64,000 nt of DNA, from NCBI GenBank assembly GCA_965221775.1, contig CBDCSU010000006.1, positions 192,001 through 256,000 on the forward strand, given 5' to 3'. A model generated the notes under the pieces. It had not been told where the DNA came from, ran no database searches, and saw only the letters and a program-made list of their open reading frames with translations. The DNA is from Candidatus Latescibacterota bacterium. GTDB taxonomy: Bacteria; Latescibacterota; UBA2968; UBA8231. Position 1 is the first letter of the stretch, and each line of letters starts with the position of its first letter. The position numbers and the translations under genes were made by a program. Positions 37,458-64,000 of the stretch are shown here, in pieces.

Positions 37458-39602
37458 TCACCCCCAGGCGAACAGGAAGTTGCCGGTGTGGCCGGTGAAG
37501 TAGTCGACGATCAGCCAGAGGCCGATGGTCAGCATCTGGCCGGCGATCATCCCCAGGAACAGCCCCTGAGTGCAGCGGTAGGTGGTGACGCTCCCGAACC
37601 GCAGGACGAGGACCTTGATGCACCAGGCGACGAAGACGCTGGTGATGGTGAAGGTCATCAGGTTCACCGCCGATACCGGGAAGGCGACCGGGTGGAGTGG
37701 CCACCAGATCAGGCGGTGGCGGGCCCAGTAGAGCAGGGACATGATGCCGCCGCCGCCGAGGAGGAAGCCCATGCCCGGCCAGTAGACGCCGGCGGGCTCC
37801 ATGTTGCGCGCGGCGCTGTCGTAGGCCACCGCCGGCCCGGCCTTGAAGAACCAGCCATCGAGGTTGACGCCGCCGTAGCGGTAGGCGACGTGGAAGATCA
37901 TCCAGAACGAGCCCAGGGTCCCGATCAGCAGGGCCAGGACGAGGGCCAGGAAGACCAGCCGCCGGCTGCGGGCGTCCATGTCCTCGATCAGCTTGAGGGA
38001 ATTGGTGCAGGTGGCCATGGCGAAGGCGCGGACCTCGCTGGCCCAGATGTAGGCCATGGCCATGTTGAAGACGCCCGTGGGGCCCACGAGAGACGAGCCG
38101 AGGCCCATGACGACGAAGTCCGGAGCGTTGACGGGGGCCCGAAGCGTCGCCAGCCCGGCCTCGGCGATGATCCGGGTGATGCCGATGAAGATCACCATGG
38201 CCAGGACGACGAAGAACGAGGAGACCCAGAGCGGCGTGCCCATGATCCACAGCCACAGGATCATGACCGCGGTCCCGCCGAGAGCGCCGATGACAGCCCC
38301 GCGGTAGGGGAGGATCTCGTCGCGGTCGTCGACGCGGGGCGCCCGGCCCAGGGCCTTGAGCCAGACCTCCTTCAGGTGCTCGCGCCCCGTCCACAGCACC
38401 ATGGCGACGAGCACCAGCAGGGCCCCCAGCCCCTGGTAGCCGACAAGGGGTGCGTCGTACACCCCGTGGAAGTGCACCTGCTCCGACTTGATCCCGGCGG
38501 TGGCCAACAGGCTCTTCTGCACCTTGCCGAAGAGGTAGAAGACCCAGACGCTGCCCGATATCCGCGTGTCGATGAAGTAGGTGAAGCCCGCCAGGGCGAA
38601 GTTGAACTTGCCCCCCAGGTACGGTATCGGCAGGTCCAGGGAGACCAGGGGGATGGAGGGGTAGTAGCTCCACAGGGCCCTCATGCTGCCGGCGGCGATG
38701 GGGATGGACATCCCCACCAGCACCGACCAGCGCTTGAAGAAGCCGTTCACCAGGCCTTTCTCGTCCTCGCCGCGGACCATGGCCAGACCGACCTGGGCGA
38801 TGGGATAGCTCAGGCGCTCCCGGTCCATCCACTGGCGCCGCAGGATCACGGCGATGGAGATCATGCAGACGTACAGGGCCAGCAGGAAGACCGCCCACCA
38901 CATGAGCGGCTCGACCCAGGCGCCGTAGGGGATGCTCTGGCCGGGCCGGGAGATCCCCTCGTAGAACAGGGCGTTCCCGGCGCCGTCGTCCACAAGGATG
39001 CCGCGCTCGGGGAAGTGGGGGAAGAGCTTCTCCCGCCACATGTTCTCGGGCGAGGCGTAGTAGAAGACGGCGGTGAGAGAGGGCAGGATGAGCTCGGACA
39101 GACCCATGGTGCACACGGCCGAGACCATGGCCAGCATGGCATAGACCATGATCAGCTCGGCCCGGTTGAGGGCCAGGCTGCGGCCGGACCACGCCAGGGG
39201 CACGTTGCCGAGGGCGCATGTCACGGCGAAGGTGGAGAAGATCAGCCCCGGCGAATGGACATCGACATCGCTCAGGGGCCAGTAGACGTGGAGCCACGCC
39301 CCCGCAAGGGCGATGGCAAGGGCGAGGGCCGCTCTCTTGCCGCGCGCCGCCAGCTTGAAGGCGAGGTTGAGGAACCCGATGAGCACGACGAAGACGAAGA
39401 TCGCCCCCGGGGTGCTGATGTCGGCGGCCACGTAGGCGCCCTTGATGACCATGTTGCTGTAGGGAGCGCTGACGGCCAGGAAGAAGCTCAGGAAGCTCCC
39501 CACGAAGAACCCCCGCCACGTCAGGCGGTGCCGGGACTCCAGCAGGGGCTCCGAGCGCGACTTCAGGTACTGGCGGTAGCTCGGCGCGATTTCCCTGTTC
39601 AC
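37458..39602 (-). CDS. Polytopic membrane protein, DUF6785/DUF6784-type (OPT-like permease), copy A
   Basis: Many hydrophobic helices; motifs LRRQWMDRERLSYP, RIIAEAG, AYRYGG, WWPLHPVAF, GMIAG; paralog of 51541-53682. Confidence 0.75.
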   Translation of the reverse strand: MNREIAPSYRQYLKSRSEPLLESRHRLTWRGFFVGSFLSFFLAVSAPYSNMVIKGAYVAADISTPGAIFVFVVLIGFLNLAFKLAARGKRAALALAIALAGAWLHVYWPLSDVDVHSPGLIFSTFAVTCALGNVPLAWSGRSLALNRAELIMVYAMLAMVSAVCTMGLSELILPSLTAVFYYASPENMWREKLFPHFPERGILVDDGAGNALFYEGISRPGQSIPYGAWVEPLMWWAVFLLALYVCMISIAVILRRQWMDRERLSYPIAQVGLAMVRGEDEKGLVNGFFKRWSVLVGMSIPIAAGSMRALWSYYPSIPLVSLDLPIPYLGGKFNFALAGFTYFIDTRISGSVWVFYLFGKVQKSLLATAGIKSEQVHFHGVYDAPLVGYQGLGALLVLVAMVLWTGREHLKEVWLKALGRAPRVDDRDEILPYRGAVIGALGGTAVMILWLWIMGTPLWVSSFFVVLAMVIFIGITRIIAEAGLATLRAPVNAPDFVVMGLGSSLVGPTGVFNMAMAYIWASEVRAFAMATCTNSLKLIEDMDARSRRLVFLALVLALLIGTLGSFWMIFHVAYRYGGVNLDGWFFKAGPAVAYDSAARNMEPAGVYWPGMGFLLGGGGIMSLLYWARHRLIWWPLHPVAFPVSAVNLMTFTITSVFVAWCIKVLVLRFGSVTTYRCTQGLFLGMIAGQMLTIGLWLIVDYFTGHTGNFLFAWG

Positions 39603-39612
39603 GGGAGGCGCG

Positions 39613-42315
39613 TCAGCGGGTCAGGGTGGAGACGGCCTTGCTGATCATCGCCAGGGCGGCGCAGAACATGCCGACCAGGGCCATGCCGACGCCGAAGCCG
39701 ACGCTGAGCACCATGGCGTAGCGCCGCCACTGCTGCTTGCCGTAGCGTTTCCAGAAGTAGTAGCGGCCCAGCAGGGCGCCGATGATCTGCGGCAGCAGCG
39801 CGTGGGGGATCCCGTTGACGCTCTGCACGTACCCCCAGATCAGGAAGATGGGAACGCCGAAGGCGGCCAGCGTGAAGTAGGCCGTCAGCCCGAAGCCGGC
39901 GCCGAGGAGGATGATCTTCCACTTCTTGCCGCCCAGGGGATGGTGGATGTCCTCGTCCACCAGCCCGTCGCCGTCGTCATCGCTCCCGTTCCTGACCTCC
40001 TCGTCGATGAGGCCGTCGCCGTCGTCGTCCTTGCCGTCCCCCGTGTACTTCACGTCCTCCCACAGCACCTCGTACAGCATGGGAACGTCCGACGACCTCT
40101 GCAGGAAGGTGCCGTCGAAGGTGGGCCGCAGGTCGATCTCGAGGTAGAACTCGACCGAGTCCGCCGGCGCCAGCGCCAGCTGGGCGCGCAGGTTCGGGTT
40201 CATCGCCTCGCGGCCCTGGAGCACGGCCCCGTGGGGCGGCCACACCAGCCCCGGCGCCGGGGGCGGCTCGAGCCCCGGGGAGGGCCGCCCGGGGCCGGCG
40301 GCGGTGTCGGGGGCCGGCGGCGGCCGCGTCCCTTCGAAAGCCTGCGGGTCCGGGCCGGCGCGCGGCGGGTTGCCGCCCTTGAAGTCGGTGTAGAAGCAGC
40401 GGGTCTCCGACCACGGGCCGTACTCCCGCTTGAGCTCGTCGGGGATGTGGTGCTCCCGGGTGGCGCGCACCCGCCAGTACCACCAGTGGCCGTCCTGCAG
40501 ATTGCTCGGGCTCCAGGCGACCTGGCCGTGGCCCAGGAGTTCGTCCTCGAGGCGCTCACCGGCCCGCCACGTCTTGCTGTACATGGTGCTCGAGTAGAAC
40601 AGGGCCTGATCGAAGGCCCGCAGCGGCCACATGCGCTGGGCGTAGGGGTAGCTCTCCGAGGGAATCGGCGCCAGCCGCCACAGGAAGGTCCAGTACATCA
40701 GGCTGACGCCGAGGACGATGGGCAGCATGAACAGCTCGGCCTTGAGGAGGCTGGTGAAGCGCATGCCCACCAGCTCGACGACGCGGAAGCCCTCGGCGTG
40801 GCCGCCGAAGTTGCGGGCCGGGAAGGGCACGAACCAGACGTCGACGCCCCGGTACCCGGTGAGAAAGATGATCGCCTCGTTGATGTACGGGATCGACACC
40901 TCGCGCCCGATGAGGCCGTCGAGGCGGGCGCTGACGAAGGACATGATCGGCGCGTATACGAAGGCGATGAGGCAGAAGGTGACCAGCAGGCCGACGCCGA
41001 CGAGGGTGGGGAACAGGGTCTTGGCGAGGACGATGGGGTAGACGGCGGAGAGGCTGAAGAGGGCGATGCAGGCCCAGATGTGGAAGTCGCCCCGGCCCAG
41101 GTGCCGGATGCAGTACCCCCGCACCTCCGACGGCCGGTTGCAGCCTTCGTGCCGGCACGTGGACGGAGCGGGAGGGCCGCCGTCGCCGAAGTACCGCTGG
41201 ATCTGGTCCTTCTGGCGGCCCAGGGTGGACCACAGCTGGTAGAAGCTGATGAGGGTGACGGCCAGGGTGATGCCGATCCCGAAGGCCCGCCAGAAGTCGA
41301 TGCCGGTGGCGATCTGGGTGCTGATCGTGTCCATGCCCAGGGCCCACCGCGGCAGCAGGCCCAGCTGGTGGAGGACCGGGCTCACGGCGGTGTGCACGAC
41401 GACGCCGGCGAAGGAGCCGATGACCGACCAGAACGGCATCAGCAGGCCGGCGAAGATGGGGCCCAGATGGAGGGTGACGCCCAGGGGCGCGGCGGGCAGG
41501 AAGTTGCCGAAGTAGGGGGTGAGGTCGGCGAAGGGGATGGGGATCAGCTCCTGCCTCTGGCCGAGGACCTCCGTCAGCGTCGGGATGCCGACGTAGAGGA
41601 AGCCGAAGGCGACGCCGATGACGGCCCCGACGCTGAAGATCGGCCACTTCCAGGTCTCTTTCTCATGGCCGCTCTCCTCGGCCAGGGCCATCGACCCCAG
41701 GGCCGACATGGGCGCCGTCGGGAAGGGCAGCTGCTCGCGGTCGGAGGTGAGGCGGAAGAGGACGTACCCGGAGGTGAACCACGAGACCCGCCCGACGATG
41801 GTGCCGAGGACGAGGAGGCCGATGGGCCAGGCCCAGTCCGGGTGGAGGAAGGTGCGCAGCCCGTGGGCTTCCGACCCCGGCCCCGGGGCCCACCAGAACG
41901 GGAGGACCTCGGAGACGCCGAACTGCTCGGCCTCGGGCGAGCGCACGAAGTACTGCCGCCACAGCAGGTCGAGGAAGGCGCCCTCCTCGCGCACCACCAG
42001 CGCGCCGGCCACGTAGACGAGCAGGTAGATCTCCTGGCGCGTGAGGGAGGTGAAGGAGCGCTTGGCCACCTCCAGGAAGAGGATCACCGTCACCCACTGG
42101 GCGGCGGCGCCGATGCCCCCGCCGGTGACCAGGCCCAGGTACATCTCTCCCGGCGTCATGATCAGCGAGATGAAGAGCACCCCGATGATCGTGCGCATGG
42201 TGAAGCCCTCGTCGAAGCGGTCGGGCGGCTGCAGCAGGTCGCGGTACTCCTTGACCTCCTCCCACTCCCGCTCGAGCCGGGCCTGTTGCCTGCTCGTCAG
42301 CCCCTGGTCAGCCAA
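39613..42315 (-). CDS. OPT-superfamily-like peptide transporter with inserted extramembrane domains
   Basis: FDEGFT, AQWVTVILF, LFRLTSDREQLPFP, LAPIPSESYPYAQRMW, QQWRRYAMVL; many TM helices; soluble insert at about 39945-40575. Confidence 0.7.
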   Translation of the reverse strand: MADQGLTSRQQARLEREWEEVKEYRDLLQPPDRFDEGFTMRTIIGVLFISLIMTPGEMYLGLVTGGGIGAAAQWVTVILFLEVAKRSFTSLTRQEIYLLVYVAGALVVREEGAFLDLLWRQYFVRSPEAEQFGVSEVLPFWWAPGPGSEAHGLRTFLHPDWAWPIGLLVLGTIVGRVSWFTSGYVLFRLTSDREQLPFPTAPMSALGSMALAEESGHEKETWKWPIFSVGAVIGVAFGFLYVGIPTLTEVLGQRQELIPIPFADLTPYFGNFLPAAPLGVTLHLGPIFAGLLMPFWSVIGSFAGVVVHTAVSPVLHQLGLLPRWALGMDTISTQIATGIDFWRAFGIGITLAVTLISFYQLWSTLGRQKDQIQRYFGDGGPPAPSTCRHEGCNRPSEVRGYCIRHLGRGDFHIWACIALFSLSAVYPIVLAKTLFPTLVGVGLLVTFCLIAFVYAPIMSFVSARLDGLIGREVSIPYINEAIIFLTGYRGVDVWFVPFPARNFGGHAEGFRVVELVGMRFTSLLKAELFMLPIVLGVSLMYWTFLWRLAPIPSESYPYAQRMWPLRAFDQALFYSSTMYSKTWRAGERLEDELLGHGQVAWSPSNLQDGHWWYWRVRATREHHIPDELKREYGPWSETRCFYTDFKGGNPPRAGPDPQAFEGTRPPPAPDTAAGPGRPSPGLEPPPAPGLVWPPHGAVLQGREAMNPNLRAQLALAPADSVEFYLEIDLRPTFDGTFLQRSSDVPMLYEVLWEDVKYTGDGKDDDGDGLIDEEVRNGSDDDGDGLVDEDIHHPLGGKKWKIILLGAGFGLTAYFTLAAFGVPIFLIWGYVQSVNGIPHALLPQIIGALLGRYYFWKRYGKQQWRRYAMVLSVGFGVGMALVGMFCAALAMISKAVSTLTR

Positions 42316-42342
42316 TCGACCTCGGCATCCGGACCGCGGCCT

Positions 42343-45054
42343 CTACATCCCGGTCCATATCCCCTCCCCTTCGCGGATGAAGATCCTGCGGTCGACGGGA
42401 AGGTCCGTGAAGATCTCGGGATCGCTCCCGGGCCAGCGGACCTCGATCCGGTCGATCTTCGCCGCCTTGCCGAGGCCGAACTCGACCGGCGGCGAGTTGG
42501 AGCTGCCGAATCCCTCCCCGTTGTGCTTCTCCCGCATGAGGGTCCGTCCCCCCGCGGTGACGTAGATCCGGGTGTCGAGGGCGTCCCGGTTGCTCTTCGT
42601 GCCCTCGAGGTCGATGTGGATCCAGTGGTTGCCCGACTCCTGGAGGTTCAGGTAGAAGGCGTTCGGGAACTGGTCTCCGTGGACGAACCCGCCCTCGGGG
42701 GCGTAGATCTCGAGATCGCCGTCGAGATCGATGTCGACGAAGGTCTCGCCGTGCCCCTTGCCCACGTTGGCGACGCCGGCGGCGAAGGTGAGGTCGGTGA
42801 AGGTCCCGTCCCCGTTGTTGCGGTAGAGGCGGTCCGGCTCCATCCGCTCGATCGCCGGATCACCCGTCCCGAAGTAGATGTCGAGGTAGCCGTCGTTGTC
42901 CAGATCGGCCACCCCCGTTCCCATGGCCCCGTTCGGGTGGAGGAACCCGGCCTCCACCGACACATCGGTGAACGTCCCGTCTCCGTTGTTGCGGTAGAGC
43001 CTCGTGCAGTGCCGGAGCATCGCCTTCTTCTTCTGCGCCGGCAGGTCGTCGTAACGGTCCGAGAGTCCCAGCAGCACGTCGTTCCACGGGGCCAGCGCCG
43101 GGCGCAGGATGTCGAGATCGAGATCGTTGTCGTAGTCGAAGAAGAAGCAGGTGTAGCCGGTGGTGAGCAGCTCGTCGTCGAGGAGGCCGGCCTCGGCGGC
43201 GCGGTCCGTGAAGGTGCCGTCGCCGTTGTTCCGGTAGAGCCGGTTCGCCGTCTCGTACCCGCTCACGAAGAGATCGGGCCAGCCGTCGTCGTCGCAGTCG
43301 CCCCAGCAGTTCCCGATCGTCCGGGTCCCGGGGTCCTCCCGGAGCCCCGCCGCCGCGGTCACGTCGGTGAAGGTGCCGTCGAGATTGTTCCGGTACAGGG
43401 TGTTGGTATCGCCGCCCCCGGTGATGCCGTTGGCGACGTAGAGGTCGACGCCGCCGTCCCGGTCGTAGTCCGACCACTGGCACACGAAGGTCGAGCCCGG
43501 GTCCCCCAGTCCGGCGGCGTCCGTCGTCTCGGTGAAGGTCCCGTCCCCGTTGTTCGTGAAGAGCGAGTTGGCAATGGGGCCGTGCCAACCGTCGCGGCCG
43601 ACGTGCAGATCGATCCAGCCGTCGTTGTCGTAGTCCGACCAGGTGGCGCTGAAGCCGGACTGCACGTGAAACAGGTTCGCCTCCCGGGAGACGTCGGTGA
43701 AGCGCTCGCCGTCGTTCCGGTACAGGGCCCCGTAGCTGTCGCTGCCGGTGACGAACAGATCGTAGTCGCCGTCCCGGTCGTAGTCGCCCCAGGCGCTCGG
43801 CCCCAGGCCGTCGTACTTGTCGATGCCGTACGCCGCCGCCGCGTCCTCGAAGAGAAGGGGGGTCGGATCCCCCGGCAGGGCCAGGTCCCTGCGGAACCGG
43901 AACGCCGTCCGCTCGTCCGGCGGGGTCCCCAGCCCCTCGTGGGCCAGGTGAAGGAGCCAGAGATGGCCCAGCTCCCGCCGGGAGTTCCTTGGCGCTCCGG
44001 CCAGGGATTCCTCGAGCAGCGCGACGGCCTCGGCGTAGCGCTCCTGCTTGAGGCGCGCCAGTCCCTTGCGCCCGATCTGGAACTGCCGGAAGTCCCCCGC
44101 CACACGCGGGTCCCCCAGGAGCAGATCGGCCAGCGCGATCGACTCGTCGTAGTCCGCCATGAGCATCGCCACGCGGCTCAGCATGTGGATGATGTCCCGG
44201 GCCATGGGCGATCCGGGGTGGACCTGGTCGTACACCTTCTCGAGCTCGGTCCGGGCGATGTCGAAGATGAGGGCCGAAGCCATGGGCCGCAGCCCGGGAC
44301 GATCGCTGTAGTCGACCCGGATCTGCCCGAGGACGAGCATCTTCGCGAAATAGAGGCGCACCGCCGCGAGATCGGGGTACTTCGCCAGGATCTCCTCGAT
44401 CACCGGGACCGCCCTGCTCGGGGCGTACTGCCCTTCTCTGTAGAGGCCCTGCACCGCTTGGCGGAACCGGCGCAGGTCGGCGGCGTTCTTCGACCCCTCC
44501 CTCACCTCCACGAGCCGGAGATTCGGCCCGCTTCCGCCTTCGTAGTAGCGCCCGAAGGAGGCGATCTCCAGCTCGCCCATCTGGCCGTACGCCGCCAGCA
44601 CCGCGTCCCGGTGAGCGCGGGCGGCCGCCTCGTTGCGGCGGCGCCTTTCGAGCTCGTACAGCAGGCGATGGGCCTTCACGCTCTGCGGCCGCAGGGCGAG
44701 CACCTTCCGCAACAACCCGATCCCCGCCTCGATGTCGGCCGGCCTCGCCGACGTCGCCATGAGGAGCCGGGCCTGCTGAAAGAGCAGCTCCGGATCATCG
44801 GGCCGCAGCCGCGCGCAGGCTTCGAACTCGGCGCGGGCGGATTCCGGCAGGTTTCGGCGGAGCTGCTCGATGCCGAGGCGCAGGCGCCGCTTGAACTCCA
44901 TGCCGGCCTGCGGTTGCGGCTCCCTTCCCGGCTCCGAGCCGCCGCCTCCTCCCCCGCTGCAGGCGGGAACGAGGGGAACCGCCAGCACGAGGCCGGTCCA
45001 CGCGGCCCGACGGAGGATCGTCCTACCGATGCTCATCCGACGCGATTCTGCCAT
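42343..45054 (-). CDS. TPR + FG-GAP (CRTAC1 / ASPIC-UnbV) protein, probably a lipoprotein
   Basis: N-terminal signal ending in PAC, TPR region, repeated WGDYDxDGxxDL and LYRNNGDGTFTD, C-terminal FGLG..IEVRWP ASPIC domain. Confidence 0.85.
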   Translation of the reverse strand: MAESRRMSIGRTILRRAAWTGLVLAVPLVPACSGGGGGGSEPGREPQPQAGMEFKRRLRLGIEQLRRNLPESARAEFEACARLRPDDPELLFQQARLLMATSARPADIEAGIGLLRKVLALRPQSVKAHRLLYELERRRRNEAAARAHRDAVLAAYGQMGELEIASFGRYYEGGSGPNLRLVEVREGSKNAADLRRFRQAVQGLYREGQYAPSRAVPVIEEILAKYPDLAAVRLYFAKMLVLGQIRVDYSDRPGLRPMASALIFDIARTELEKVYDQVHPGSPMARDIIHMLSRVAMLMADYDESIALADLLLGDPRVAGDFRQFQIGRKGLARLKQERYAEAVALLEESLAGAPRNSRRELGHLWLLHLAHEGLGTPPDERTAFRFRRDLALPGDPTPLLFEDAAAAYGIDKYDGLGPSAWGDYDRDGDYDLFVTGSDSYGALYRNDGERFTDVSREANLFHVQSGFSATWSDYDNDGWIDLHVGRDGWHGPIANSLFTNNGDGTFTETTDAAGLGDPGSTFVCQWSDYDRDGGVDLYVANGITGGGDTNTLYRNNLDGTFTDVTAAAGLREDPGTRTIGNCWGDCDDDGWPDLFVSGYETANRLYRNNGDGTFTDRAAEAGLLDDELLTTGYTCFFFDYDNDLDLDILRPALAPWNDVLLGLSDRYDDLPAQKKKAMLRHCTRLYRNNGDGTFTDVSVEAGFLHPNGAMGTGVADLDNDGYLDIYFGTGDPAIERMEPDRLYRNNGDGTFTDLTFAAGVANVGKGHGETFVDIDLDGDLEIYAPEGGFVHGDQFPNAFYLNLQESGNHWIHIDLEGTKSNRDALDTRIYVTAGGRTLMREKHNGEGFGSSNSPPVEFGLGKAAKIDRIEVRWPGSDPEIFTDLPVDRRIFIREGEGIWTGM

Positions 45055-46860: not shown

Positions 46861-46869
46861 GCTCCTCCC

Positions 46870-47286: not shown

Positions 47287-47519
47287 GGTCGACTCCCGTC
47301 GGGAGAGCCCCGCCATGCCTTGGCCCGACTCGAAGGTGTGAATACCGCGCGTCCTCTCGCAGGTGGGGCCGCTTGGCGGCGAAACGGACAGCGCCACGGG
47401 CGGCATGGTCAGCAGTCGGTCAAAGATAGGGCAATGGGCCACTTGGCGGCGCCGGGCAACGCATGCCCCCCGTATCCCTATCATTGCGAGTCACCTCCCG
47501 GAGATGTGCCGAGATTCCG

Positions 47520-50655: not shown

Positions 50656-50711
50656 CTCGTGAGGTCTCGCGGAACGCTGCCCCCCAGCTGCCGCGCCCGC
50701 GCCCGCTCGCG

Positions 50712-51470: not shown

Positions 51471-51540
51471 GGCGGGCCGCCATGGCAGGTGCGAAGGCAG
51501 GTCCCTCTTTGCGGAGCCGGACGGCTGCCGGCGGCTGCCC

Positions 51541-56700: not shown

Positions 56701-58136
56701 CGCACGTCGACCCGGAAGGTGCGCAGCTCGTCCTCGAGGACCGGGCCGAACTCCTCCAGGTCGGCCAGCAGCCGGGGATCGTCGAAGGCCCGGGTCAGGA
56801 TCTGGTTGAGGAAGGCGCTCTGCCGGGACAGGTTGTCGAAGTCGACCCGCTGCGGCCGGTCCAGGGGCGTGTCGACGACGAAGCGGCCGTCGCCGATGGT
56901 GACGAAGGAGAGGGCCACGAGCCCCGCGGCCATGGCCACCTGGCCGTCCACGGTGACTCCCCCCGGCACGTAGGTCGACCAGTCGAGGCCCTTGTGGGGA
57001 CTGATGCCGTTGACCAGGGCGCGCTCCGCCCGGCGCCCCAGTCGCGGCGCCGCCTCCTCGGCGTAGGCGGTGAAGGCGCGGCCGAAGGGAACGTAGAACC
57101 GCTTGATGTCGTAGCGGTCGGTGTTGTTCCAGAGGCCGATGCGGTCGCTGCCGCTGGTCAGGTCCAGGCCGATGAAGAGATCCGGATTCAGGGGCTTCTC
57201 CATGAGCCCGGCGTAGTCCGGGTGGGTGCGGGCATGGCGGTCGAGGAAGTCGACGATCCCCCGCTGGGCCAGGAAGTGGGCGCCGGCGGCCACCAGGACG
57301 ACGGTCCGCGCCGGCGGGCGGCGCTGGAGATGCCGGGCCAGCTCCAGCAGCGCGGCGATGCCGCCGGCGGTCTCGGCCGAGGGCGCCAGGGCCGGCACGA
57401 TGGAGATGCCGTCGTAGTAGGCCTGGACGACGATCGTCTCCCCGCCGAGCTCGGGGTGGTGACCGGGGATCACGCCCCAGACGTTGCGGCCCTTGCGCGA
57501 GACCCAGTCCATGCGGCTCCCCAGGCGCGCGTCGAGGGGTCCGTCCTCGGCCAGCGCCCTCAGGCGGGCGCCGGCGGCGGCGCCGATCCAGAGCCTGGGT
57601 ATGTCGAGGGGGACGGAGACGAACTTGGCGCCCGCCTCGCGCCCGGAGGTGGCCTGCGGCTCGATGAAGACAATGGCGCGGGCGCCGAGGGAGGCGGCCT
57701 CCAGCCAGCGGTGGCCCGTGTTGAACTCGAGGAGGACGATGCTGCCGGCCAGGTCGAGGCCGGCGTACTCGGACAGGTGCCCTGCCCCGCCGTAGATCAG
57801 GTGCCCGGAGAGCCCGGCCGCCGGCACCGTGGGGGTCCGCACGTGGTTGGGCCACAGGCCGTGGAGGCGGAAGCGCTCGCCCGTGGCGGTGAGGGTGAGG
57901 TCGCCGCCGCGGTCGAGGGGCACGGTGACCGGGTACTCCTCGACGGTGACCTCGCGGACGCCGGCGGCGGCCAAGGCGTCGGCCACGTAGTCGGCGGCCC
58001 GGTCGCTGCCCGGGTAGCCGCTGACCCGGGAGCCGACGGAGGCCATGAACTCCACGGTGGCGCGGATGCCGTCCGCCTCCGCCCGGGCGGCGGCGCACAG
58101 CGCCGGCAGCGTCAGCCAGAGGATCAGCCGTCGCAT
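53745..58136 (-). CDS. 1463-aa fusion: signal peptide + PA/M28-peptidase-like ectodomain + TM bundle + MacB/FtsX permease + cytoplasmic C-terminal domain
   Basis: SRVSGYPG..AADYV, NVWGVIPG, GIAALLELAR (M28 fold); ISNMRRRKLRTTLT and YERLREIGVYSSVGL (FtsX motifs). Confidence 0.78.
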   Translation of the reverse strand: MRRLILWLTLPALCAAARAEADGIRATVEFMASVGSRVSGYPGSDRAADYVADALAAAGVREVTVEEYPVTVPLDRGGDLTLTATGERFRLHGLWPNHVRTPTVPAAGLSGHLIYGGAGHLSEYAGLDLAGSIVLLEFNTGHRWLEAASLGARAIVFIEPQATSGREAGAKFVSVPLDIPRLWIGAAAGARLRALAEDGPLDARLGSRMDWVSRKGRNVWGVIPGHHPELGGETIVVQAYYDGISIVPALAPSAETAGGIAALLELARHLQRRPPARTVVLVAAGAHFLAQRGIVDFLDRHARTHPDYAGLMEKPLNPDLFIGLDLTSGSDRIGLWNNTDRYDIKRFYVPFGRAFTAYAEEAAPRLGRRAERALVNGISPHKGLDWSTYVPGGVTVDGQVAMAAGLVALSFVTIGDGRFVVDTPLDRPQRVDFDNLSRQSAFLNQILTRAFDDPRLLADLEEFGPVLEDELRTFRVDVRAFPRRSQVPDRVVEGAIVALGAGAGRRAELGFKPHKGVRAFRFHLADGNGSAVIPGLPLGAVPVSAYVLDPETGGIVYAPDSGERARRHHGQRLAQAIRFAGEHKTLVVFPCVPRPFYGLVDPRSLTAVGPIRVATHTGVAPKEYGVAKGEGVLEPVAVAFAAAGDSLVYLMSDSMILTNSRTDPRGTGYVVGRDPLERTDYLAVRDMWRINDERLAAMRDHAIENPRLAALHAHGRELIDQAGAAAERREWDAFMAGVRAARGVTSRAYPDVTATLNDVIKGLVFFLALVLPAAFFGERLIFAAADIRWQLSGFALIMAIVWAAISQVHPAFDIAHPAIILLAFAIMAMAVFVCAMIFSRFNHYVEEFQARASQVRRADINRLSASYAAFMLGISNMRRRKLRTTLTLVTLTLLTFTVLSFTSFRQQLAFLAFPTAHEARYEGVLIRHPGWKELSPPTLDYVRSHFSGHGVVSPRNWLVAEAGKPKSYIEVQGPAGATLAAGLLGLSPQETRVTGIDEALVAGRFFETVDESTCLLPERMAAALGIGVDDVGRAAVRVFGRDLVVGGIVDAGRLAAIRDLDAEPLTPADFQSGEVGLPGGRERVSMEIEEEAGPDRIEPFLHMAADNVLIVPYGAVWVAGGTLRSVGVRFDETADGRPLLEGFLTRVAATLFASLRDPGTGELEVSSYTSVGLTAVEGLAALLVPIVIAALIVLNTMLGAVYERLREIGVYSSVGLAPMHIALLFVAEACVYAVLGVTLGYLLGQGSAKLLLGLGLVQGMDLNYSSTAAVTAALMVMALVLLSTLYPARVAAARAVPDTVRRWVPPAPEGDRWEFDFPFAVGTGEVRGLSGFLAGWFESSNEDSIGDFCAEKVRLVTGGEAGAREYSLQMLTWLAPFDKGVSQYLQLDFVPSPAAAIYQVEVFIERVSGETASWRRLNQGFMNTLRKQFLLWHTFTEEARAHHRKAAEGMLAESAAAAAAGEG

Positions 58137-59863
58137 CAGCCCCCGGGCCGCACGGCGCTGCCGCCACCCTCCTGCTGTACCAGCGCTTTCAGGCTCTCTT
58201 CGTGGATCCTGACCCGGGGCTCGTACCGTTTCCGCAGCTGGCCCAGAAACCGGTGGAAGGCCGCATCGCGCTTGCGGCGCAGGACCAGCGCCCGGGCGCG
58301 GGTCTCGACCTCGGCGAAGGGCCGGGGGCCGGCTCCGAGGTTCGACTCGACGACCCTGAACACCGAGTGGCAGCGGTCTCCCGCCGCCCCGGGGGGGGAC
58401 GCCAACCGGGGGGCCGGCACCGCCACTTCGACGGGGCCCAGGAGGTCGCCCGGCGCGGCTCCCTGCGCGGCTTCGAAGAGGGCCTCGTGCGCTGCTCTCT
58501 CGTAGCCATGGAGGTGGAACCTGCCGCTGTCCGGGATGGCCCGGCGCCGCAGGGTGTGCTCCAAAGCCAGGAGCCGCAGATCCTCACCGCCCTCGATCCG
58601 GCGGCGCAGCGCTACCGCCTCCTCGCGTGTGGCCACCAGGACCTCGTCCAGCGTCAGGCTCTCCTGGGGGACGAAGAGCCGCGAGTTCTCGTGGTGGAAG
58701 CGCCGGGCCTCGGCCTCGTCCACGGCGACGTCGCGGGTCACCTCCTTCCGGATGACCCCGATCAGGCGTTCCTGTTCTCTGGCCTGGCGCCAGGCGGCCA
58801 TCTTCGGCTCGCGGTCGATGCCGGCCTCGCGGGCGGCCCTCACCGCCAGCGCGCGGGGAACCAGGACGGACTCGGCGAACCCCCGCAGCTGCCCGCGCAC
58901 ATCTCCGGAGAACCCCCGGTAGTTCTCGCGGGCCGAGTCGACGAACTCCCCCACCGTGATGGCGCCGCCGTCGAACTCGTAGAGCACCGTGGCGCGCTCC
59001 GCCCCGGAGAGCGCTCCGCCGCTCTCCAGACGCGCGGCGAGAAGCTCGAAACCGTCTTCCCGGGGACGCGCGTCCAGGGCCTCCCGCAGTTCCCGGCCCA
59101 GCTCCGTGGACCGGACGCGGGCCTTCTCCCGGTGGAGCCCGGCTTCCACCAGACGCCGCACCCGCTCGAGGGGGACCGTCACCTCCTCCACGACCTGGAA
59201 GACGCCGTAGGAGCCGCCCGGCAGGGGCAGCGGCTCGGAGATCTCACCCTCCCCGAGGGGATAGACCTTTTCCCGCATGACGGGCAGGGGCATCTGGTCC
59301 CTGGTGACGTACCCGGTGTACAGACCCCCCTGGGCCGCCGTCGGACCGTGGACGGAGCGCTGCCTCGCCAGCTCCTCGAAATCGGCGCCGCCCTCGAGGA
59401 GGCGCACGATCTCCTCGGCCTCTTCCCTGCTCCCCACATCGATCCGGCCGCACCTGACGGCGCGGTCTCGTCCGGTCTTCAGGTAGTGGTCGCGGACCTC
59501 CTGCTCCTCGAGGGTGATCTTCGCGTCCACCTCCCGGGCCAGGAACTCCTGCACCAGCCGCCGGGTCCATTCGCGCTCCAGCCCGCGGCGCATGTCGGGG
59601 TCGCGGTCCCATCCCCGCGCCGCCGCCTCCCGCAGGAGGATCTCCTTGTCGATCAGGGCCTGCAGATGCTGCCGCCGGCCTTCGATGCCCGCCTCCCTGG
59701 ACCTCAGGCTCTCGGCCAGGCGCTCCTCGTAGCGGCGCAGGTCGGATGCGTGGATGCGGGAGTCCCCCACCTCGGCCAGCACCGGGCCGCGGGGGTCTGC
59801 CCCGCAACCGGTCAGGACCGCCCCCGCGGCCAGGATCAGCGCCGGTCCGGCAGGTCTCATCAA
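58136..59863 (-). CDS. PpiC/parvulin-type peptidyl-prolyl isomerase lipoprotein (two rotamase domains, SurA/PrsA-like)
   Basis: Lipobox LTGC, EEAEEIVRLLEGGADFEELARQRS, GEISEP; second degenerate parvulin domain (IEGGEDLRLLALEHT). Confidence 0.82.
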   Translation of the reverse strand: MMRPAGPALILAAGAVLTGCGADPRGPVLAEVGDSRIHASDLRRYEERLAESLRSREAGIEGRRQHLQALIDKEILLREAAARGWDRDPDMRRGLEREWTRRLVQEFLAREVDAKITLEEQEVRDHYLKTGRDRAVRCGRIDVGSREEAEEIVRLLEGGADFEELARQRSVHGPTAAQGGLYTGYVTRDQMPLPVMREKVYPLGEGEISEPLPLPGGSYGVFQVVEEVTVPLERVRRLVEAGLHREKARVRSTELGRELREALDARPREDGFELLAARLESGGALSGAERATVLYEFDGGAITVGEFVDSARENYRGFSGDVRGQLRGFAESVLVPRALAVRAAREAGIDREPKMAAWRQAREQERLIGVIRKEVTRDVAVDEAEARRFHHENSRLFVPQESLTLDEVLVATREEAVALRRRIEGGEDLRLLALEHTLRRRAIPDSGRFHLHGYERAAHEALFEAAQGAAPGDLLGPVEVAVPAPRLASPPGAAGDRCHSVFRVVESNLGAGPRPFAEVETRARALVLRRKRDAAFHRFLGQLRKRYEPRVRIHEESLKALVQQEGGGSAVRPGG

Positions 59864-62763
59864 TCCCTCAATCCTGTGTAGACGGTGAAAAAGGACAGGG
59901 CGCTGGTATCCGAACGGTCCTTGCCGGCGAAGGTGTCGATCTTCCGTCTGTCCACGCGAATCCCCAGGGTGGCCATCAGTCTGTATCCCAGGTAGGTGCT
60001 CGCATTGGCCAGCTGCAAGGCGAGGGACAGCTCATCGAAGTCCCCCGTGGCATCGCCCGGATTCAGGCCCGCCACGGGATCCTCGTCGAAGGCGACCTCC
60101 CGCTGGGCGAAGTCGCGGAACACGACCTGTTCCAGGCCGACGATCACCGTGCTGTGGCTCAGCACCGGGATGTCCAGCCGCAGGGAGGCGATGCCGGCCC
60201 ACTCCCGGCGCTCGAAGACCCGGTCGTTCAGGAGCCACTCCGTGTTGAAGGGGGTATCGTCGACGAACAGCTCGTGCTTGAAGCGCGGACGCAGCTGGAT
60301 GCCGCGGCCCAGGGGATGGAGCCAGTCGAGCTTGTTGATCAGACCGAGGCGCCGGGTGTGCCTCGGGATCTTCCGCCCCCCCCGGTCCACGGTGACTTCC
60401 TGCCGCTGCCGCAGCACCTCGTGGATCAGCCGGCTCTCGGAGTTGATGCCGCTGTCGCCGAGGCGCTCGAAGCCGAGGGACAGCTTGTTGACCCAGGTGT
60501 CCGGCAGGCCCAGCGGGTCCGGGACCGGGGTCATGCCCGCGGCCCGGAACCGCCCGTGGAGCCACTGGACCAGGTCGTCCGGGATGTCGTCCTCGACCCG
60601 CTTCAGCATGTCGTACACCGTCACCTCGCCGACGCCGGGCCAGCTGCGCTCGAAGGCGAGCAGGGCATAGCTGGTGACGTTCGTCTCGCCCGTGGAGGGG
60701 CGGCGCTGCCGCTGGTGGCCCGCGGTGATCCTGGCGCCCGGCAGGATCCACGCTCCGCCGTAGACGTTGTATCCGCGGCGGTCCCGCGGGTACGGGTAGT
60801 CGGGTTCGTCGTCGTTCTCGAAACGGTCCCCCCAGCCGTTGTTGTTCATGTCCAGGCCGAAGAGATACTCGGGCCGGTCGACGCCGTAGCGCAGGAAGGG
60901 CTCGGCGTAGTCGGGGATGTCGTTGGGCCGCTCGCGGGTGTCGTTCTGGTTGAAATCGGAGATGAAGTCGTTGTTCTCGTCGAGGCCGGGAAAGACCGCC
61001 TCGTCGGCGTAGCCCTCGAACCCGCGCACCACGCCCAGGCCCCGCTCCCCTGCCGTGCGGCCGTCGTCGAAGATGCGCTTCTGGTCGTTCTTGCGGTCGT
61101 TGTCGTCGTTGTCGTCCACCAGGTCGTAGAGGTAGCGGGAATGGGCCCGGGGCGTGTCCGAGTAGTCGACGCGCCCCGCCGTGTCCAGGAACCGCATGGA
61201 GGTCGAGTACTCGGCGTCCATGCCGAAGGCCTCGCCGAAGAGGTAGTACGGGTAGAAGTCCCTGGCCACGTTGACCATCCACCCTTCGGCGTAGGGATCG
61301 CCCCCGATGCCGGACGAGGTGGTGTGGCTGGCGCGGCTCACGTCGGGGTACTTGCGGTAGCGGTGGTTCACGTTGAACTCGCCGTAGAGCCGGAACCCGG
61401 CCAGGTCGTCGGCCTCCACCGTGAAGCCGAGGACCTGGGTGGCCGTGGGCAGTCCGTAGTCGAAGACCACGGAGCCCAGGTTGGAATGGTCCTGCACGTT
61501 CCCCGGCGCCCGCGCCAGGGTGCGGAAGACCGGACGCGGGTCGAAGAGGGCGTTGTCGGTCTGCTGGTCGGAGGTGACCTCGACCTTGTAGTCGTTGCTC
61601 AGGACCATCCGGAAGCGGACCCTGCGGATGTTGTTCACCACGTCGGCCAGGGGCACCACCGTCTCCAGATCGTCGAGGACGGCCGGGTCCGGATCGGCGA
61701 GGACGTATTCCAGCCGGATCCGCCCCGGGTCGCCGGCGCCTTCGGCTGCCAGGAAGCCGTCCCGGGCGACACCTCCCGAAACCCTCGGGTGGAAGCCGAT
61801 CCGGCTGCCCACCAGCACCGTGTCCAGCTCCCCGATCCGGGTGGTGATCTCGATGTCGTGGGCGAAGAGGGCGGGACCCGCCTCGCCGTCGGCCGGGGAG
61901 TCGTCGGTGATCTGCACCGTGATCCGGTTGATGCGCGCCCCCGCCTGGTGGGAGCTCAGCCTCCCGGTGTAGGGACTGCCGTCGAAAGGCCGGGTCGAGC
62001 TGCGCCCGTTGTGGGCGTTCACGAAGGTCCCCCCCAGGCGCACGAAGTCGGTTGCGTTCCACACCGCCCGGAGACCGGCGAGGGTGGTGAACTCGTCGAC
62101 GAAACTGGCCCTCGGCTCCACCAGCGGGACGTTGACCCGGGAGATGAGGGCCGTGGCCGAGCCGACATCGGACATGTAGTCGAACTGGACCCCGTTGAAG
62201 GCCGTCTTGCGGAAGGTCATGGGCGTCAGGGTCGTGCGGATCTCGTCGCCCACGGTGACCCGGAAGTAGTGCTGCCCCTTGGTGTCGGAAGAGACCACGA
62301 GGGAGCCGAGGAGGTCCTTGTACTCACCCGTCTTGTGGAGCAGGTTCCCTTCGGACGTCCGCGGCCGGCTCTGCTGCCAGTCGTAGATCAGCCAGCCGCG
62401 GGTGAGGAGCCTGCCGTAGAGATCGTACTGATGGTCGCCCTCCTGATCGGTGGCCAGGTACCGCAGGTAGCGCTGGCGGGCGTAGTTGGTCTCCTCCCAG
62501 CGCCAGCGGTACTGGTTGGCGGTCGGCCGCGGCCTGTACCACTTCTTCAGAGAGGGATCGAAGATCGACCCGTCGACGCTGGGAGCCGCCGGGTAGTAGC
62601 TCACCCGGCCGCCCTCGCGGAGGCCGAGGCGGTTCCCGTAGTCCCAGCGGGCGGCGGCGGGGCCGGCGCCCAGAATCACCGCGAGGGCGGCGACGACGAG
62701 GATCGGCCAGCGGCCGGCGGCCGGGCCGGGCCGCACCGTGCGCGCTCCGGGAACCTCGGACAT
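59860..62763 (-). CDS. Large secreted hypothetical protein with acidic Ca-binding-like repeats; probable outer-membrane beta-barrel
   Basis: Signal peptide ending AAA; DDNDDND, GLDENNDFISDFNQND, GLDMNNNG motifs; amphipathic beta strands at the C-terminus (ALSFFTVYTGL); ATG overlaps the upstream stop. Confidence 0.65.
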   Translation of the reverse strand: MSEVPGARTVRPGPAAGRWPILVVAALAVILGAGPAAARWDYGNRLGLREGGRVSYYPAAPSVDGSIFDPSLKKWYRPRPTANQYRWRWEETNYARQRYLRYLATDQEGDHQYDLYGRLLTRGWLIYDWQQSRPRTSEGNLLHKTGEYKDLLGSLVVSSDTKGQHYFRVTVGDEIRTTLTPMTFRKTAFNGVQFDYMSDVGSATALISRVNVPLVEPRASFVDEFTTLAGLRAVWNATDFVRLGGTFVNAHNGRSSTRPFDGSPYTGRLSSHQAGARINRITVQITDDSPADGEAGPALFAHDIEITTRIGELDTVLVGSRIGFHPRVSGGVARDGFLAAEGAGDPGRIRLEYVLADPDPAVLDDLETVVPLADVVNNIRRVRFRMVLSNDYKVEVTSDQQTDNALFDPRPVFRTLARAPGNVQDHSNLGSVVFDYGLPTATQVLGFTVEADDLAGFRLYGEFNVNHRYRKYPDVSRASHTTSSGIGGDPYAEGWMVNVARDFYPYYLFGEAFGMDAEYSTSMRFLDTAGRVDYSDTPRAHSRYLYDLVDDNDDNDRKNDQKRIFDDGRTAGERGLGVVRGFEGYADEAVFPGLDENNDFISDFNQNDTRERPNDIPDYAEPFLRYGVDRPEYLFGLDMNNNGWGDRFENDDEPDYPYPRDRRGYNVYGGAWILPGARITAGHQRQRRPSTGETNVTSYALLAFERSWPGVGEVTVYDMLKRVEDDIPDDLVQWLHGRFRAAGMTPVPDPLGLPDTWVNKLSLGFERLGDSGINSESRLIHEVLRQRQEVTVDRGGRKIPRHTRRLGLINKLDWLHPLGRGIQLRPRFKHELFVDDTPFNTEWLLNDRVFERREWAGIASLRLDIPVLSHSTVIVGLEQVVFRDFAQREVAFDEDPVAGLNPGDATGDFDELSLALQLANASTYLGYRLMATLGIRVDRRKIDTFAGKDRSDTSALSFFTVYTGLRD

Positions 62764-64000
62764 CAGAGTCCGGCGTTTATGGTGATGAAGGTGGTGCTCA
62801 GCTCGCGCCCCCGGTCTTCCTTCACCGAGGCTCCCTGGCCGCCGGCGGTGATGAACTCGTCCCAGGCCCGGGTGTACATGATGCCGAACCGGGTGATCAG
62901 CGTGTATCCCTGGTAATCGCCGACGGTGGACCACTGGGCGGCCAGCACCAGGCTGCGGGAGTCGCCCGTGGCCCCCACCCGGTTGGCGGCGAGGGCCCCC
63001 TTCTCGTCGAGCATCAGGTCGGCAACGCGGTGGTACTCCAGCCCCGCCTCCAGGGAGGAGGCGCCCAACATGGGATGCCGCAGCAGCAGGATGCCCGTTC
63101 CCGTCCACTCCCGGCGCCCGTCTCCGTCGAGAATGAAGGGCGTCTGGTTCAGGTACTCGCTCTTGATCCGGGGCTGCACCTCCAGGCTGCCGGCGCGCCA
63201 GGTGCCATCCGCCTTGTTGATGAACCCGAAGAAATGGGTGCGGTCCTCCAGCAAGGGGCCGACCCCGCGTTCGTGAGCGTCTCCCTGCCGGGCGTACAGG
63301 TCGTACTTCAGTTTGGCCGTCGTCTTCAGCTCACCCGGAAGGCGGTAGTTCAGCTCCAGGTAGGTCGAGTTCACCCAGGCATCGCGCGCCGGGAGCAGGT
63401 CCTCGACTCTGGCCAGGTTGCCGGGGGCGAGACCGAGGTAGGGAGTCATCTCCCGGCGGTCGTCGGGGATGGTGTCCCGGGCCCGCTTGAGCATGTCGTA
63501 GACCCGGACCCTGCCGAAGCGCGGGTCGTCGTGGGTGAAGGTGACCAGTCCGTACGTCGTGTGGTTTCTCCGGTCCGAGGAGAGGGAGTTGACCCGCATG
63601 CGCCCCAAGGTGGCCTTGATGCCGGGGGTCAGGAAGAGGCCGCCGTAGACGTTGTACCCCCGCTGGTCCCTCTTGTAGGGGTAGTCGGCGAGATCGTCGT
63701 TCTCGAAGCGGTCTACCCAGTCGTTGTTGTTCAGGTCGATGCCGAAGAGGAACTCGGGCCGGTCCGAGTGGTAGCGGAAGAACGGCTCCTCGTAGTCGGG
63801 GATGCGGTTGGCCAGGATGTTGCTGTCGTTCTGATTGAAGTCCGACACGAAATCGTTGTTTTCGTCCCATCCCGGGAAGACGTTGGCATCGCCGGAGCCC
63901 TGCTGCCACCGGCTCCAGTCGGGGAAGCGGTCCTGGTCGTCATTGTCCTCGACGAACTCGTAGAGGTGCCGCGTCGTATGGTCGTAGAGGACGTCCCCTT
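62763..64000 (-). CDS. Paralog of 59860-62763, 5'-truncated by the window edge
   Basis: YEFVEDNDDQDR, FPGWDENNDFVSDFNQND, PDYEEPFFRY, FLFGIDLNNN, RFENDD..DYPY, C-terminal TTFITINAGL. Confidence 0.7.
   Translation of the reverse strand, partial: GDVLYDHTTRHLYEFVEDNDDQDRFPDWSRWQQGSGDANVFPGWDENNDFVSDFNQNDSNILANRIPDYEEPFFRYHSDRPEFLFGIDLNNNDWVDRFENDDLADYPYKRDQRGYNVYGGLFLTPGIKATLGRMRVNSLSSDRRNHTTYGLVTFTHDDPRFGRVRVYDMLKRARDTIPDDRREMTPYLGLAPGNLARVEDLLPARDAWVNSTYLELNYRLPGELKTTAKLKYDLYARQGDAHERGVGPLLEDRTHFFGFINKADGTWRAGSLEVQPRIKSEYLNQTPFILDGDGRREWTGTGILLLRHPMLGASSLEAGLEYHRVADLMLDEKGALAANRVGATGDSRSLVLAAQWSTVGDYQGYTLITRFGIMYTRAWDEFITAGGQGASVKEDRGRELSTTFITINAGL

Follow-up and report, generated by a model that had tools for sequence, protein, structure and literature searches.

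An operon-level joint between two separable gene modules, one of predicted outer-membrane barrels and one of an FtsX-type giant with OPT-like permeases, in a Latescibacterota genome

Results

Gene content of the locus

We analyzed a 64,000-nucleotide stretch of a Candidatus Latescibacterota genome (G000:C6:192001-256000; G000 is the source genome, the whole stretch is called the window, and offsets beyond 64000 refer to the contig past the window end). The stretch encodes a pair of large secreted proteins (barrels A and B), a PpiC/parvulin lipoprotein, a 1463-amino-acid (aa) fusion protein (the giant), two DUF6785 permeases (copies A and B), an OPT-like permease and a creatininase-family amidohydrolase, which a sequence-only reading had put forward as a candidate trans-envelope machine. 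All of the genes named in that reading are present, on the minus strand, and its stop/start overlaps were confirmed by direct reading of the junctions: TGATG at 62763 between barrels A and B, TTGATGA at 59860-59863 between barrel B and PpiC, and TGATG at 58136 between PpiC and the giant. A 71-base gap separates the giant from copy B. Although the genes and their overlaps are confirmed, they make up two separable modules rather than one obligate machine, and the stretch is an operon-level joint of two gene modules that are also found apart. Module 1 comprises the barrel pair, PpiC and, just past the window, three secreted proteins whose tails resemble those of type IX secretion; module 2 comprises the pseudo-M28/MacB-fold giant, the OPT-like protein and the DUF6785 permeases.

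The upper run begins ~9 kb past the window end. Inspection of the flank past 64000, to which the earlier reading had pointed, revealed the operon start, with a 310-aa SWGxxK-tailed protein and three secreted proteins with FlgD/C-terminal domain (CTD) tails, followed in transcription order by barrel A, barrel B, PpiC, the giant, copy B and creatininase. Two plus-strand genes (47565-50655), however, converge on the creatininase gene, so the region is not a single transcription unit, and the OPT-like gene and copy A, which sit behind DUF4920-MacB-ATPase-ASPIC, belong to a separate unit. Error-free contigs of run X3 span the barrel A/B, barrel B/PpiC and PpiC/giant junctions, the giant/copy B gap and the 44500-51637 block; because X3 may be the source sample, this serves only as a check of the assembly. 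RNA runs X1 and X2 contained small shares, from related strains only, in short contigs of ~90-98% identity. A promoter and terminator scan returned 2 and 3 sites, compared to 0.9 and 4.8 expected, and was uninformative. Long off-frame open reading frames, including a 714-aa frame over copy B, were rejected as shadows of GC-rich sequence.

Locus maps of G000 revealed the same two cassettes recurring elsewhere in the genome, one with barrel, CTD, PpiC and P310 genes together with ASPIC and TPR genes (module 1), and the other with the giant and OPT-like genes, with or without DUF6785 (module 2). The genome carries 20 barrel, 28 CTD, 7 PpiC, 10 P310, 5 giant, 5 OPT-like and 21 DUF6785 genes. At the other four giant loci, the OPT-like gene lies directly after the giant or across one DUF6785 gene, and none has an adjacent barrel.

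Table 1. Positions of the features in the window and in the adjoining upstream flank.
Feature	Position	Strand	Description
FlgD/CTD-tailed secreted proteins (three) and 310-aa SWGxxK-tailed protein	offsets 65577-73324	-	725, 841 and 649 aa; upstream of barrel A
Barrel A, 3´ part	62763..64000	-	whole gene to offset 65561, 932 aa; module 1
Barrel B	59860..62763	-	967 aa, predicted large outer-membrane beta-barrel; module 1
PpiC/parvulin lipoprotein	58136..59863	-	Pfam Rotamase; lipobox LTGC; module 1
Giant	53745..58136	-	1463 aa; module 2
DUF6785/DUF6784 permease copy B	51541..53673	-	710 aa, by identity to copy A; module 2
Creatininase-family amidohydrolase	50712..51470	-	Pfam 120.9 bits; local addition
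Inserted block	42343..50655	mixed	ASPIC/FG-GAP+TPR (-), ABC ATPase (-), MacB permease (-), DUF4920 (-), TPR (+), ASPIC/FG-GAP (+)
OPT-like permease	39613..42315	-	900 aa, lineage-specific inserts; module 2
DUF6785/DUF6784 permease copy A	37458..39602	-	714 aa; Pfam 359.7 and 79.8 bits; module 2

The two modules occur apart and together

The modules do not need each other, as they dissociate in both directions. Genomes of one family (f10, 88-97% complete) carry barrels in 10/10 cases, but neither the giant (0/10), nor the small FtsX protein described below (0/10), nor DUF6785 (0/7). Conversely, a second family (f8, 89-98% complete) has giants in 4/4 and barrels in 0/4 genomes at E<=1e-5, and another small phylum has the giant in 5/5 and barrels in 0/5, in small genomes of unstated completeness. 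No barrel was detected in ten f2/f3/f4 genomes at the strict threshold of E<=1e-100, nor at 1e-30 in G032 despite 34 DUF6785 matches; for barrels and giants alike, absence means not found with this query. Overall, genomes without a barrel match hold 23-48 DUF6785 matches. In a pool of 84 giant loci (70 found with the OPT-like query; near-duplicates and short flanks dropped), any barrel-module gene was nearby in 14 and creatininase in one.

These observations bear directly on the proposal that the locus encodes a single obligate import machine, in which a barrel pore, a chaperone, a pseudo-peptidase receptor, a permease complex and a cytoplasmic hydrolase would cover the whole envelope. The translational coupling of barrel, barrel, PpiC and giant speaks for such a machine, as do gene orders in other lineages and the enrichment of DUF6785 near barrels described next. 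The proposal is nevertheless already contradicted by the families and the phylum above, and neither the barrel-free giant loci of G000 nor the near absence of creatininase fits it. DUF6785 clusters also appear in archaea, which have no outer membrane, according to an Atlas listing that we treat as a lead only. We therefore find one obligate trans-envelope machine unsupported and extremely improbable.

Co-localization of barrel and permease genes did exceed chance. In five near-complete genomes, 41/103 DUF6785 loci were within 20 kb of a barrel, compared to 10.9 expected under random placement (p<=0.001 in four genomes and 0.22 in one), after removal of split fragments (in G017, 9/60 barrel rows) and merging of copies that lay within 8 kb of one another. 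For the 18 other families of at least 12 members in G000, 0-15% of genes were near barrels, compared to 38% (8/21) for DUF6785 and 81% for ASPIC. The giant itself was not enriched near barrels in the same genomes (3/16 vs 1.3 expected). On a FastTree tree of 85 of the 159 giant sequences, built with no clade test, loci with barrel-PpiC upstream of the giant fall into two distant clades, that of the window, nested among unlinked relatives, and that of L049, L195 and L227. The like barrel-PpiC-giant order in L049, L195, L199 and L227 has one lipoprotein gene between, and in L233 and L239 the order is barrel-TPR-ExbB-ExbD-ExbD-lipoprotein-PpiC-OPT-like.

One explanation for these encounters is that no functional relation exists between the modules, and that their meeting reflects nothing more than high copy number and a shared tendency to collect in variable regions. 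This would be in line with the double dissociation, with the lack of enrichment for the giant and with an arrangement that, in the window, is confined to a small nested clade and ends at a tRNA-Lys gene. However, the other multi-copy families of G000 do not approach the proportion seen for DUF6785, and a co-oriented barrel-PpiC pair ahead of module 2 recurs in separate lineages, making chance gathering decidedly unlikely. The modules are probably linked, and the DUF6785 enrichment near barrels, together with the barrel-PpiC-giant order in two clades, suggests facultative coupling.

Module 2 is a conserved unit with a likely motor encoded in trans

Of the 84 giant loci, 83 carry an OPT-like or DUF6785 gene. 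Among 62 full-flank loci found with the giant, an OPT-like gene is present in 44 and a separate DUF6785 gene in 39. The two kinds of protein are also joined naturally, as 19 of 120 listed giant homologs are giant-DUF6785 fusions with FtsX and DUF6785 in one chain; all 15 that were checked hold, and the fusion was found in one clade. The giant is present in 41/41 genomes searched, its own included. The grouping of giant, OPT-like and DUF6785 proteins made from the sequence thus corresponds to a conserved unit, and across genomes it is the giant and permeases that cluster, while barrels and creatininase are not constant partners. For 80 loci from GTDB, the labels, where given, were Latescibacterota or Gemmatimonadota, and the homolog listings were filled by close relatives. 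Atlas listings suggest relatives in Verrucomicrobiota, Armatimonadota and archaea.

What the sequence-only reading overlooked is that the inner-membrane unit has a dedicated small FtsX protein and ABC ATPase, encoded in the operon in deep lineages. Operons of the form giant-OPT-(P372)-PqqD-small FtsX-ATPase were found at L139, L141, L145, L211, L222, L117 and L122, and without PqqD at L115 (L115, L117 and L122 belong to another small phylum). In these operons the small FtsX protein is 213-229 aa long, has almost no periplasmic domain and is followed by the ATPase gene, usually with a P372 and/or PqqD-domain gene before it. A PqqD-domain gene occurs at 21/84 giant loci. In G000, single-copy orthologs of small FtsX and the ATPase, 50% and 74% identical, lie at C6:2503797-2505348, and the ATPase has intact Walker A, signature, Walker B and H-loop motifs; it is assigned to the giant by orthology, not by binding. 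Across the phylum, exactly one small FtsX match was found in 110/121 genomes, and the gene abuts the ATPase in 20/20 loci fetched. The composition of module 2 and its trans motor are well supported by genomics. The co-absence of small FtsX, giant and DUF6785 in f10 was counted in favor of a motor-permease partnership. A complex prediction that paired the membrane helices of the giant and its cognate OPT-like partner from the G000 C5 locus scored 0.03, compared to a mark of 0.32, which is not evidence either way.

The ATPase encoded within the window (45023-45700) was also considered as the giant's motor and rejected, since it shares 37% identity with the operon ATPase, whereas the trans copy shares 74%, and since it has a MacB permease of its own to which it is coupled. 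Another type of ATPase, which has no small FtsX neighbor and shares 53-55% identity with the query ATPases, was noted at G000:C4:611854-612606 and at L120, L128, L130 and L131, and similar lone ATPases lie upstream of the giant in some relatives. P372 (G000:C5:263692-265144, L136) is a cytoplasmic-looking protein of 290-370 aa, conserved between the OPT-like and PqqD-domain genes, with no match to a Pfam family. Two small genes upstream of one giant (G000:C5:272519-273474; L080) presumably encode, judging by eye, a Gx-type ECF S component and a NusG-domain-II protein. Low-GC (30-49%) loci among L174-L198 and L210 represent a separate lineage, in which housekeeping genes surround only the giant, the OPT-like gene and a small gene of TPR type; their flanks showed no gene of the barrel module.

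Domain structure of the giant

The giant consists of a signal peptide, a PA domain with a pseudo-M28 domain, a transthyretin-like domain, three extra transmembrane (TM) helices, a MacB-type four-TM unit that holds a periplasmic domain and, after this unit, a C-terminal helix-grip-like domain. In Pfam searches, FtsX scored 45.6 bits (cut-off 25.5) and M28 17.5 bits, below its 21.3 cut-off. Residues 395-1455 were modeled at a pLDDT of 84.3, and the model matches YtrF, MacB, HrtB, FtsX and LolC at Z 12-14. The YtrF match (Z 14.4) spans 348 aligned residues at a root-mean-square deviation (rmsd) of 18.5, and that to the MacB periplasmic domain (Z 13.4) spans 179 at an rmsd of 3.5. The transthyretin-like domain was matched at Z 9.7, and the C-terminus weakly matches helix-grip domains (Z ~8). 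The MacB-type helices were placed at 886-904, 1176-1194, 1221-1239 and 1267-1285, with the large periplasmic domain between TM1 and TM2. Two hallmarks of type VII ABC proteins were seen as model helices, an amphipathic helix before TM1 (model residues 468-485) and a coupling helix between TM2 and TM3 (model residues 811-819). Seven hydrophobic helices, the three extra ones and then the MacB four, would orient the protein with its head on the outer and its C-terminus on the inner side of the membrane.

In profile searches, the head matched PA-domain M28 aminopeptidases (E 1e-15), with weaker matches to nicalin (E 5.6e-5) and the transferrin receptor. M28 aminopeptidases bind zinc through His, Asp, Glu, Asp and His and have a catalytic Glu. 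Across 113 aligned homologs of the head, the first zinc His is Tyr in 105 and His in 3, the position of the bridging Asp is variable, Glu-Glu has become His-Phe (His in 113, Phe in 94), and the last His has become Asp or Asn (69/38), a column that rests on weak alignment. One ligand Asp is kept in 110. In all, four of the five zinc-ligand positions are replaced, and a set of pocket residues, D, E, H and D, is nearly invariant. Because the zinc-ligand positions are replaced while these pocket residues stay, the head is likely a binding domain and not a two-zinc peptidase. The description of this protein as a pseudo-peptidase-FtsX fusion is borne out, with most of the zinc ligands absent from its M28 domain.

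The OPT-like and DUF6785 permeases

Copy A passes the Pfam cut-offs for both DUF6785 and DUF6784 (Table 1), and copy B, which was assigned to these families by its identity to copy A and not by Pfam, is 83% identical to it in protein. In comparisons of shallow profiles, DUF6785 matched true OPT proteins at 70% probability over 424 columns, and the OPT-like family matched DUF6785 at 86% over 198 columns. Some OPT-like homologs pass the PF03169 cut-off (36.3 bits in G027), and the family is carried by 9/120 listed homologs. As the sequence-only reading had held, both the DUF6785 and OPT-like proteins are probable, not proven, distant relatives of the OPT family.

Within the OPT-like protein, residues ~375-405 and 580-800 contain a Cys/His zinc-finger-like stretch (PF24906 at 20.5 bits, below its cut-off), an Ig-like domain and acidic DDDGDG repeats. 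These inserts are clade-specific, with a propeller-type insert in their place in the L139 homolog. Among the products of genes beside DUF6785 copies are enolase-type, lactonase, SDR, BNR and GFO enzymes, a solute-binding protein and LacI.

The barrel and surface-protein module

Barrels A and B are 43% identical, and barrel A is secreted with an acidic loop. No Pfam or NCBIfam family was found for barrel B, and for barrel A none was found in Pfam with the part in the window or in NCBIfam with the whole protein. Barrel B has 623 representatives at E<=0.001, and its Atlas matches were unnamed clusters only, among the 30 matches listed. An AlphaFold model of barrel B (pLDDT 85.3, pTM 0.87) has more than 20 long strands, an inserted beta domain and an acidic loop, and the single hydrophobic stretch of the protein is N-terminal (signal peptide). 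The Foldseek listing for this model, in which TMq reached 0.26 at most, named LptD, SlpA, MtrB, ushers, SprA and TonB-dependent receptors, and 50/50 rows from VIA were membrane barrels or barrel complexes (best Z 14.2, rmsd 10.4). A sequence search of solved structures with the barrel profile gave nothing useful. In agreement with the earlier assignment of the secreted pair, of which this member was folded, barrel B is thus predicted to be an outer-membrane barrel; its family is undescribed, and no solved structure is a close relative.

All seven PpiC copies of G000 sit in barrel loci. Two of the three upstream CTD proteins pass the FlgD/CHU_C Pfam cut-off (39.7 bits; 29.4 and 27.7 bits) and the third falls below it. 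G000 also encodes proteins matching SprA_N (117 bits) and the sortase-like Peptidase_C25 (264 bits); PorP/SprF profiles had no match in G000, but their control gave no match either. Because SprA and a C25 sortase-like protein are in the genome and the tails are of the FlgD/CHU_C type, the CTD proteins are likely type IX-like cargo. The earlier reading, which saw no TonB or ExbBD in the window, missed the ExbB-ExbD-ExbD genes at a barrel locus elsewhere.

Several further features of these loci were noted. A tail resembling TAVE..SWG.IK ends 37 G000 proteins, most with signal-peptide-like starts and the operon-opening 310-aa protein among them, and looks like a second C-terminal sorting signal. 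A PG.Y...AY tail is common to 27 CTD proteins of G000. A lipoprotein-like protein of ~260-290 aa, with no Pfam family in the three tested, recurs beside PpiC in barrel loci (L049, L193, L195, L199, L233, L239, L218; G000:C6:25390-26172). Barrel copy number has an extreme range, from 60 matches in G017, many split in pieces, to none in G032 of the same class. Finally, 13/16 ASPIC/FG-GAP genes of G000 are within 20 kb of a barrel, and the ASPIC/TPR proteins may belong to the barrel system.

Local history of the window

The OPT-like protein of the window is 86% and 82% identical to the products of genes directly after orthologous giants in G023 and G019, and the inserted block parts the giant from this cognate gene. 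Only G007 and L053, each a 92% relative, were seen to carry the block, creatininase-ASPIC-TPR-DUF4920-MacB-ATPase-ASPIC, and at the DNA level the two permease copies share 88% identity over 2191 aligned bases. Copy B is a recent duplicate of copy A, and creatininase and the inserted block are recent, local additions. Because relatives keep the giant and OPT-like gene adjacent, the copies are so similar and the block is confined to close relatives, we infer that an originally adjacent giant-OPT pair was separated in recent times, by duplication and insertion. Found at only 1/84 giant loci, creatininase was rejected as a core part.

The inserted block combines a DUF4920-MacB-ATPase-ASPIC unit with a divergent TPR-ASPIC pair (window 42343-50655). 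At the other end of the arrangement, a tRNA-Lys(CTT) gene (window 37291-37366, plus strand), ~90 bases past the end of copy A, stands at the border with housekeeping genes, which we take by eye to be efp, gcvH, scpAB, cmk and rpsA, and may mark an integration boundary.

Discussion

We favor an explanation in which the inner-membrane module is an ATP-driven importer, with a MacB-type ABC motor serving OPT-related permeases, joined to an optional barrel module, and regard the chances that it is right or wrong as evenly balanced. The giant and small FtsX would pair as a LolCE-like heterodimer, each supplying half of a type VII ABC motor that runs on a single shared ATPase, and the pseudo-M28 head would bind ligand outside the membrane. 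The OPT-like protein, matched in number to the giants, would be a fixed subunit. The 21 DUF6785 paralogs would be swappable, substrate-specific permeases for uptake, like the subunits of shared-motor ECF transporters (an analogy that implies no homology). The barrel module would be a common, though optional, partner, displaying or gating surface proteins that capture or cleave substrates. The contacts, direction and substrate of module 2 in this scheme are inferred.

A number of observations weigh against this importer. The OPT assignment is weak: the window OPT-like protein scored 17.7 bits against PF03169 (E 0.003; cut-off 25.8), the OPT-like family matched true OPT proteins at only 16% over 33 columns in the shallow profile comparison, and a sequence search of solved structures with the OPT-like and DUF6785 profiles found no match. 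The motor-permease partnership is read from gene context and fusions, and the giant lacks the enrichment near barrels seen for DUF6785. Catabolic neighbors are common genome-wide in G000, and many DUF6785 neighbors are unrelated. Relatedness among the counted loci and genomes makes the counts look more independent than they are. Peptide export or processing would account equally well for the cytoplasmic PqqD-like protein of the operon. In addition, PMC5985334 presents type VII ABC proteins as mechanotransducers rather than importers, and PMC9691689 presents the solved OPT-family member YS1 as a proton-driven elevator, a proton symporter.

Indeed, module 2 could instead export, mature or assemble peptides or envelope proteins in the service of the module 1 surface proteins, with the PqqD-like protein binding a cytoplasmic peptide, OPT-fold subunits moving it and the head acting as a nicalin/nicastrin-like substrate gate. 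The PqqD domain, the nicalin profile match, the invariant D, E, H and D of the former active site and the enrichment of DUF6785 near barrel/CTD loci all point in this direction, and type VII systems act on the outer face (PMC5985334, available part). Bacterial aminopeptidases, however, match the head far better than nicalin, barrels persist without module 2 in f10, and the dozens of DUF6785 matches in barrel-free genomes fit many small substrates over one assembly job. No conserved precursor peptide was noticed, with no systematic search made. We consider export or assembly unlikely.

A device for sensing or signaling, with no net transport, was also weighed. Ligand on the head or on DUF6785 would be relayed by ATP-driven movement to the helix-grip domain, P372 and the PqqD-like protein. 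FtsEX and BceAB-type systems signal rather than transport, and the extra cytoplasmic domain of the giant and the lack of a solute-binding protein in the conserved operon are consistent with such a role. On the other hand, no conserved kinase or regulator was noticed beside the loci read gene by gene, and full-length multi-pass OPT-like subunits are kept, which leaves pure sensing very unlikely.

Returning to the importer, a more far-reaching version is that module 2 represents a new class of primary transporter, in which interchangeable OPT-fold permeases, dozens of them, are powered by one MacB-type motor whose receptor head is a dead peptidase, fed in many Latescibacterota by a likewise undescribed ExbBD-linked twin-barrel surface system. 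This idea is tentative and less likely to be right than wrong; if true, it would describe a SusCD-independent, envelope-spanning route to harvest organic matter. The operon and natural fusions tie type VII ABC proteins, described as force transmitters through which no solute crosses their own membrane, to OPT/YSL proteins, described as proton-driven carriers, and point to a hybrid undescribed in the searched literature. Near-universal in Latescibacterota with 20-48 permease copies, module 2 may serve this uncultured phylum of heterotrophs as a major route of uptake, and compact single operons (L141, L145, L117) make the hybrid experimentally tractable. The barrel family would add a large predicted outer-membrane fold without a close solved relative.

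The literature search found no description of the barrel family, the giant-permease unit or their combination, in line with the earlier reading, and DUF6785 or DUF6784 is named in no paper found; most subscription papers and supplements were outside the search. New here are the dissociation of the modules in both directions, the enrichment of DUF6785 near barrels relative to control families, the recurrent origin of a barrel-PpiC-giant order and the history of insertion at this locus.

Comparison with known systems

Multi-copy cassettes of barrels and surface proteins near permeases and catabolic genes are typical of SusC/SusD polysaccharide-utilization loci. Module 1 resembles these and TonB-dependent transporters in its multi-copy barrel cassettes and in the ExbB-ExbD-ExbD genes at one barrel locus. 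Unlike them, its barrels match no receptor profile in Pfam or NCBIfam (TonB-dependent receptors were listed at TMq 0.14-0.22) and come as pairs alongside PpiC and CTD-tailed proteins, not SusD lipoproteins. The upstream proteins share FlgD/CHU_C tails with type IX secretion cargo, in a genome with SprA and a C25 sortase-like protein, whereas the barrels, at ~900 aa, differ from PorP/SprF-type carriers and match no PorP/SprF profile (nor did the control).

Nicalin and the transferrin receptor are M28 pseudo-peptidases, and the giant head likewise has an M28 fold without most of the zinc ligands in a membrane-anchored ectodomain. It differs from both in being closer to bacterial PA-domain aminopeptidases and in being fused to an ABC membrane unit. 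Group II ECF transporters use a shared EcfAA'T motor with scattered S components. The copy-number logic of module 2, one motor pair and many scattered specificity subunits, is the same by analogy only, but its ATPase and membrane unit are of the MacB/FtsX type and its variable subunits are DUF6785 OPT relatives of 630-720 aa.

With the type VII ABC proteins (MacB, LolCDE, FtsEX, YtrEF, HrtBA, YbbAP-TesA), as defined in the available part of PMC5985334, the giant shares the four-TM unit, the periplasmic domain between TM1 and TM2 and the amphipathic helix, and module 2 likewise has a separate MacB-type ATPase and a probable heterodimer as in LolCE. YbbAP-TesA also couples its motor to a periplasmic hydrolase, though the available part of the paper mentions no M28 or peptidase (PMC12646458). 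Unlike these systems, the giant has a fused PA/pseudo-M28 head, three extra TM helices and a C-terminal helix-grip-like domain; its partner half is almost without a periplasmic domain; there is one motor pair for five giants; and module 2 is consistently partnered or fused with OPT-related multi-pass proteins.

Finally, the module 2 permeases are similar in size and hydrophobicity to the OPT/YSL family (PF03169, TC 2.A.67; barley YS1), with weak profile homology, although the window OPT-like protein falls below the Pfam cut-off. Prokaryotic OPT members are often found near peptidases, according to the part available of a review that there mentions ABC once and FtsX not at all (PMC3061005). YS1, as presented in the accessible text of PMC9691689, is a proton-coupled, stand-alone carrier, unlike the motor-linked permeases proposed for module 2.

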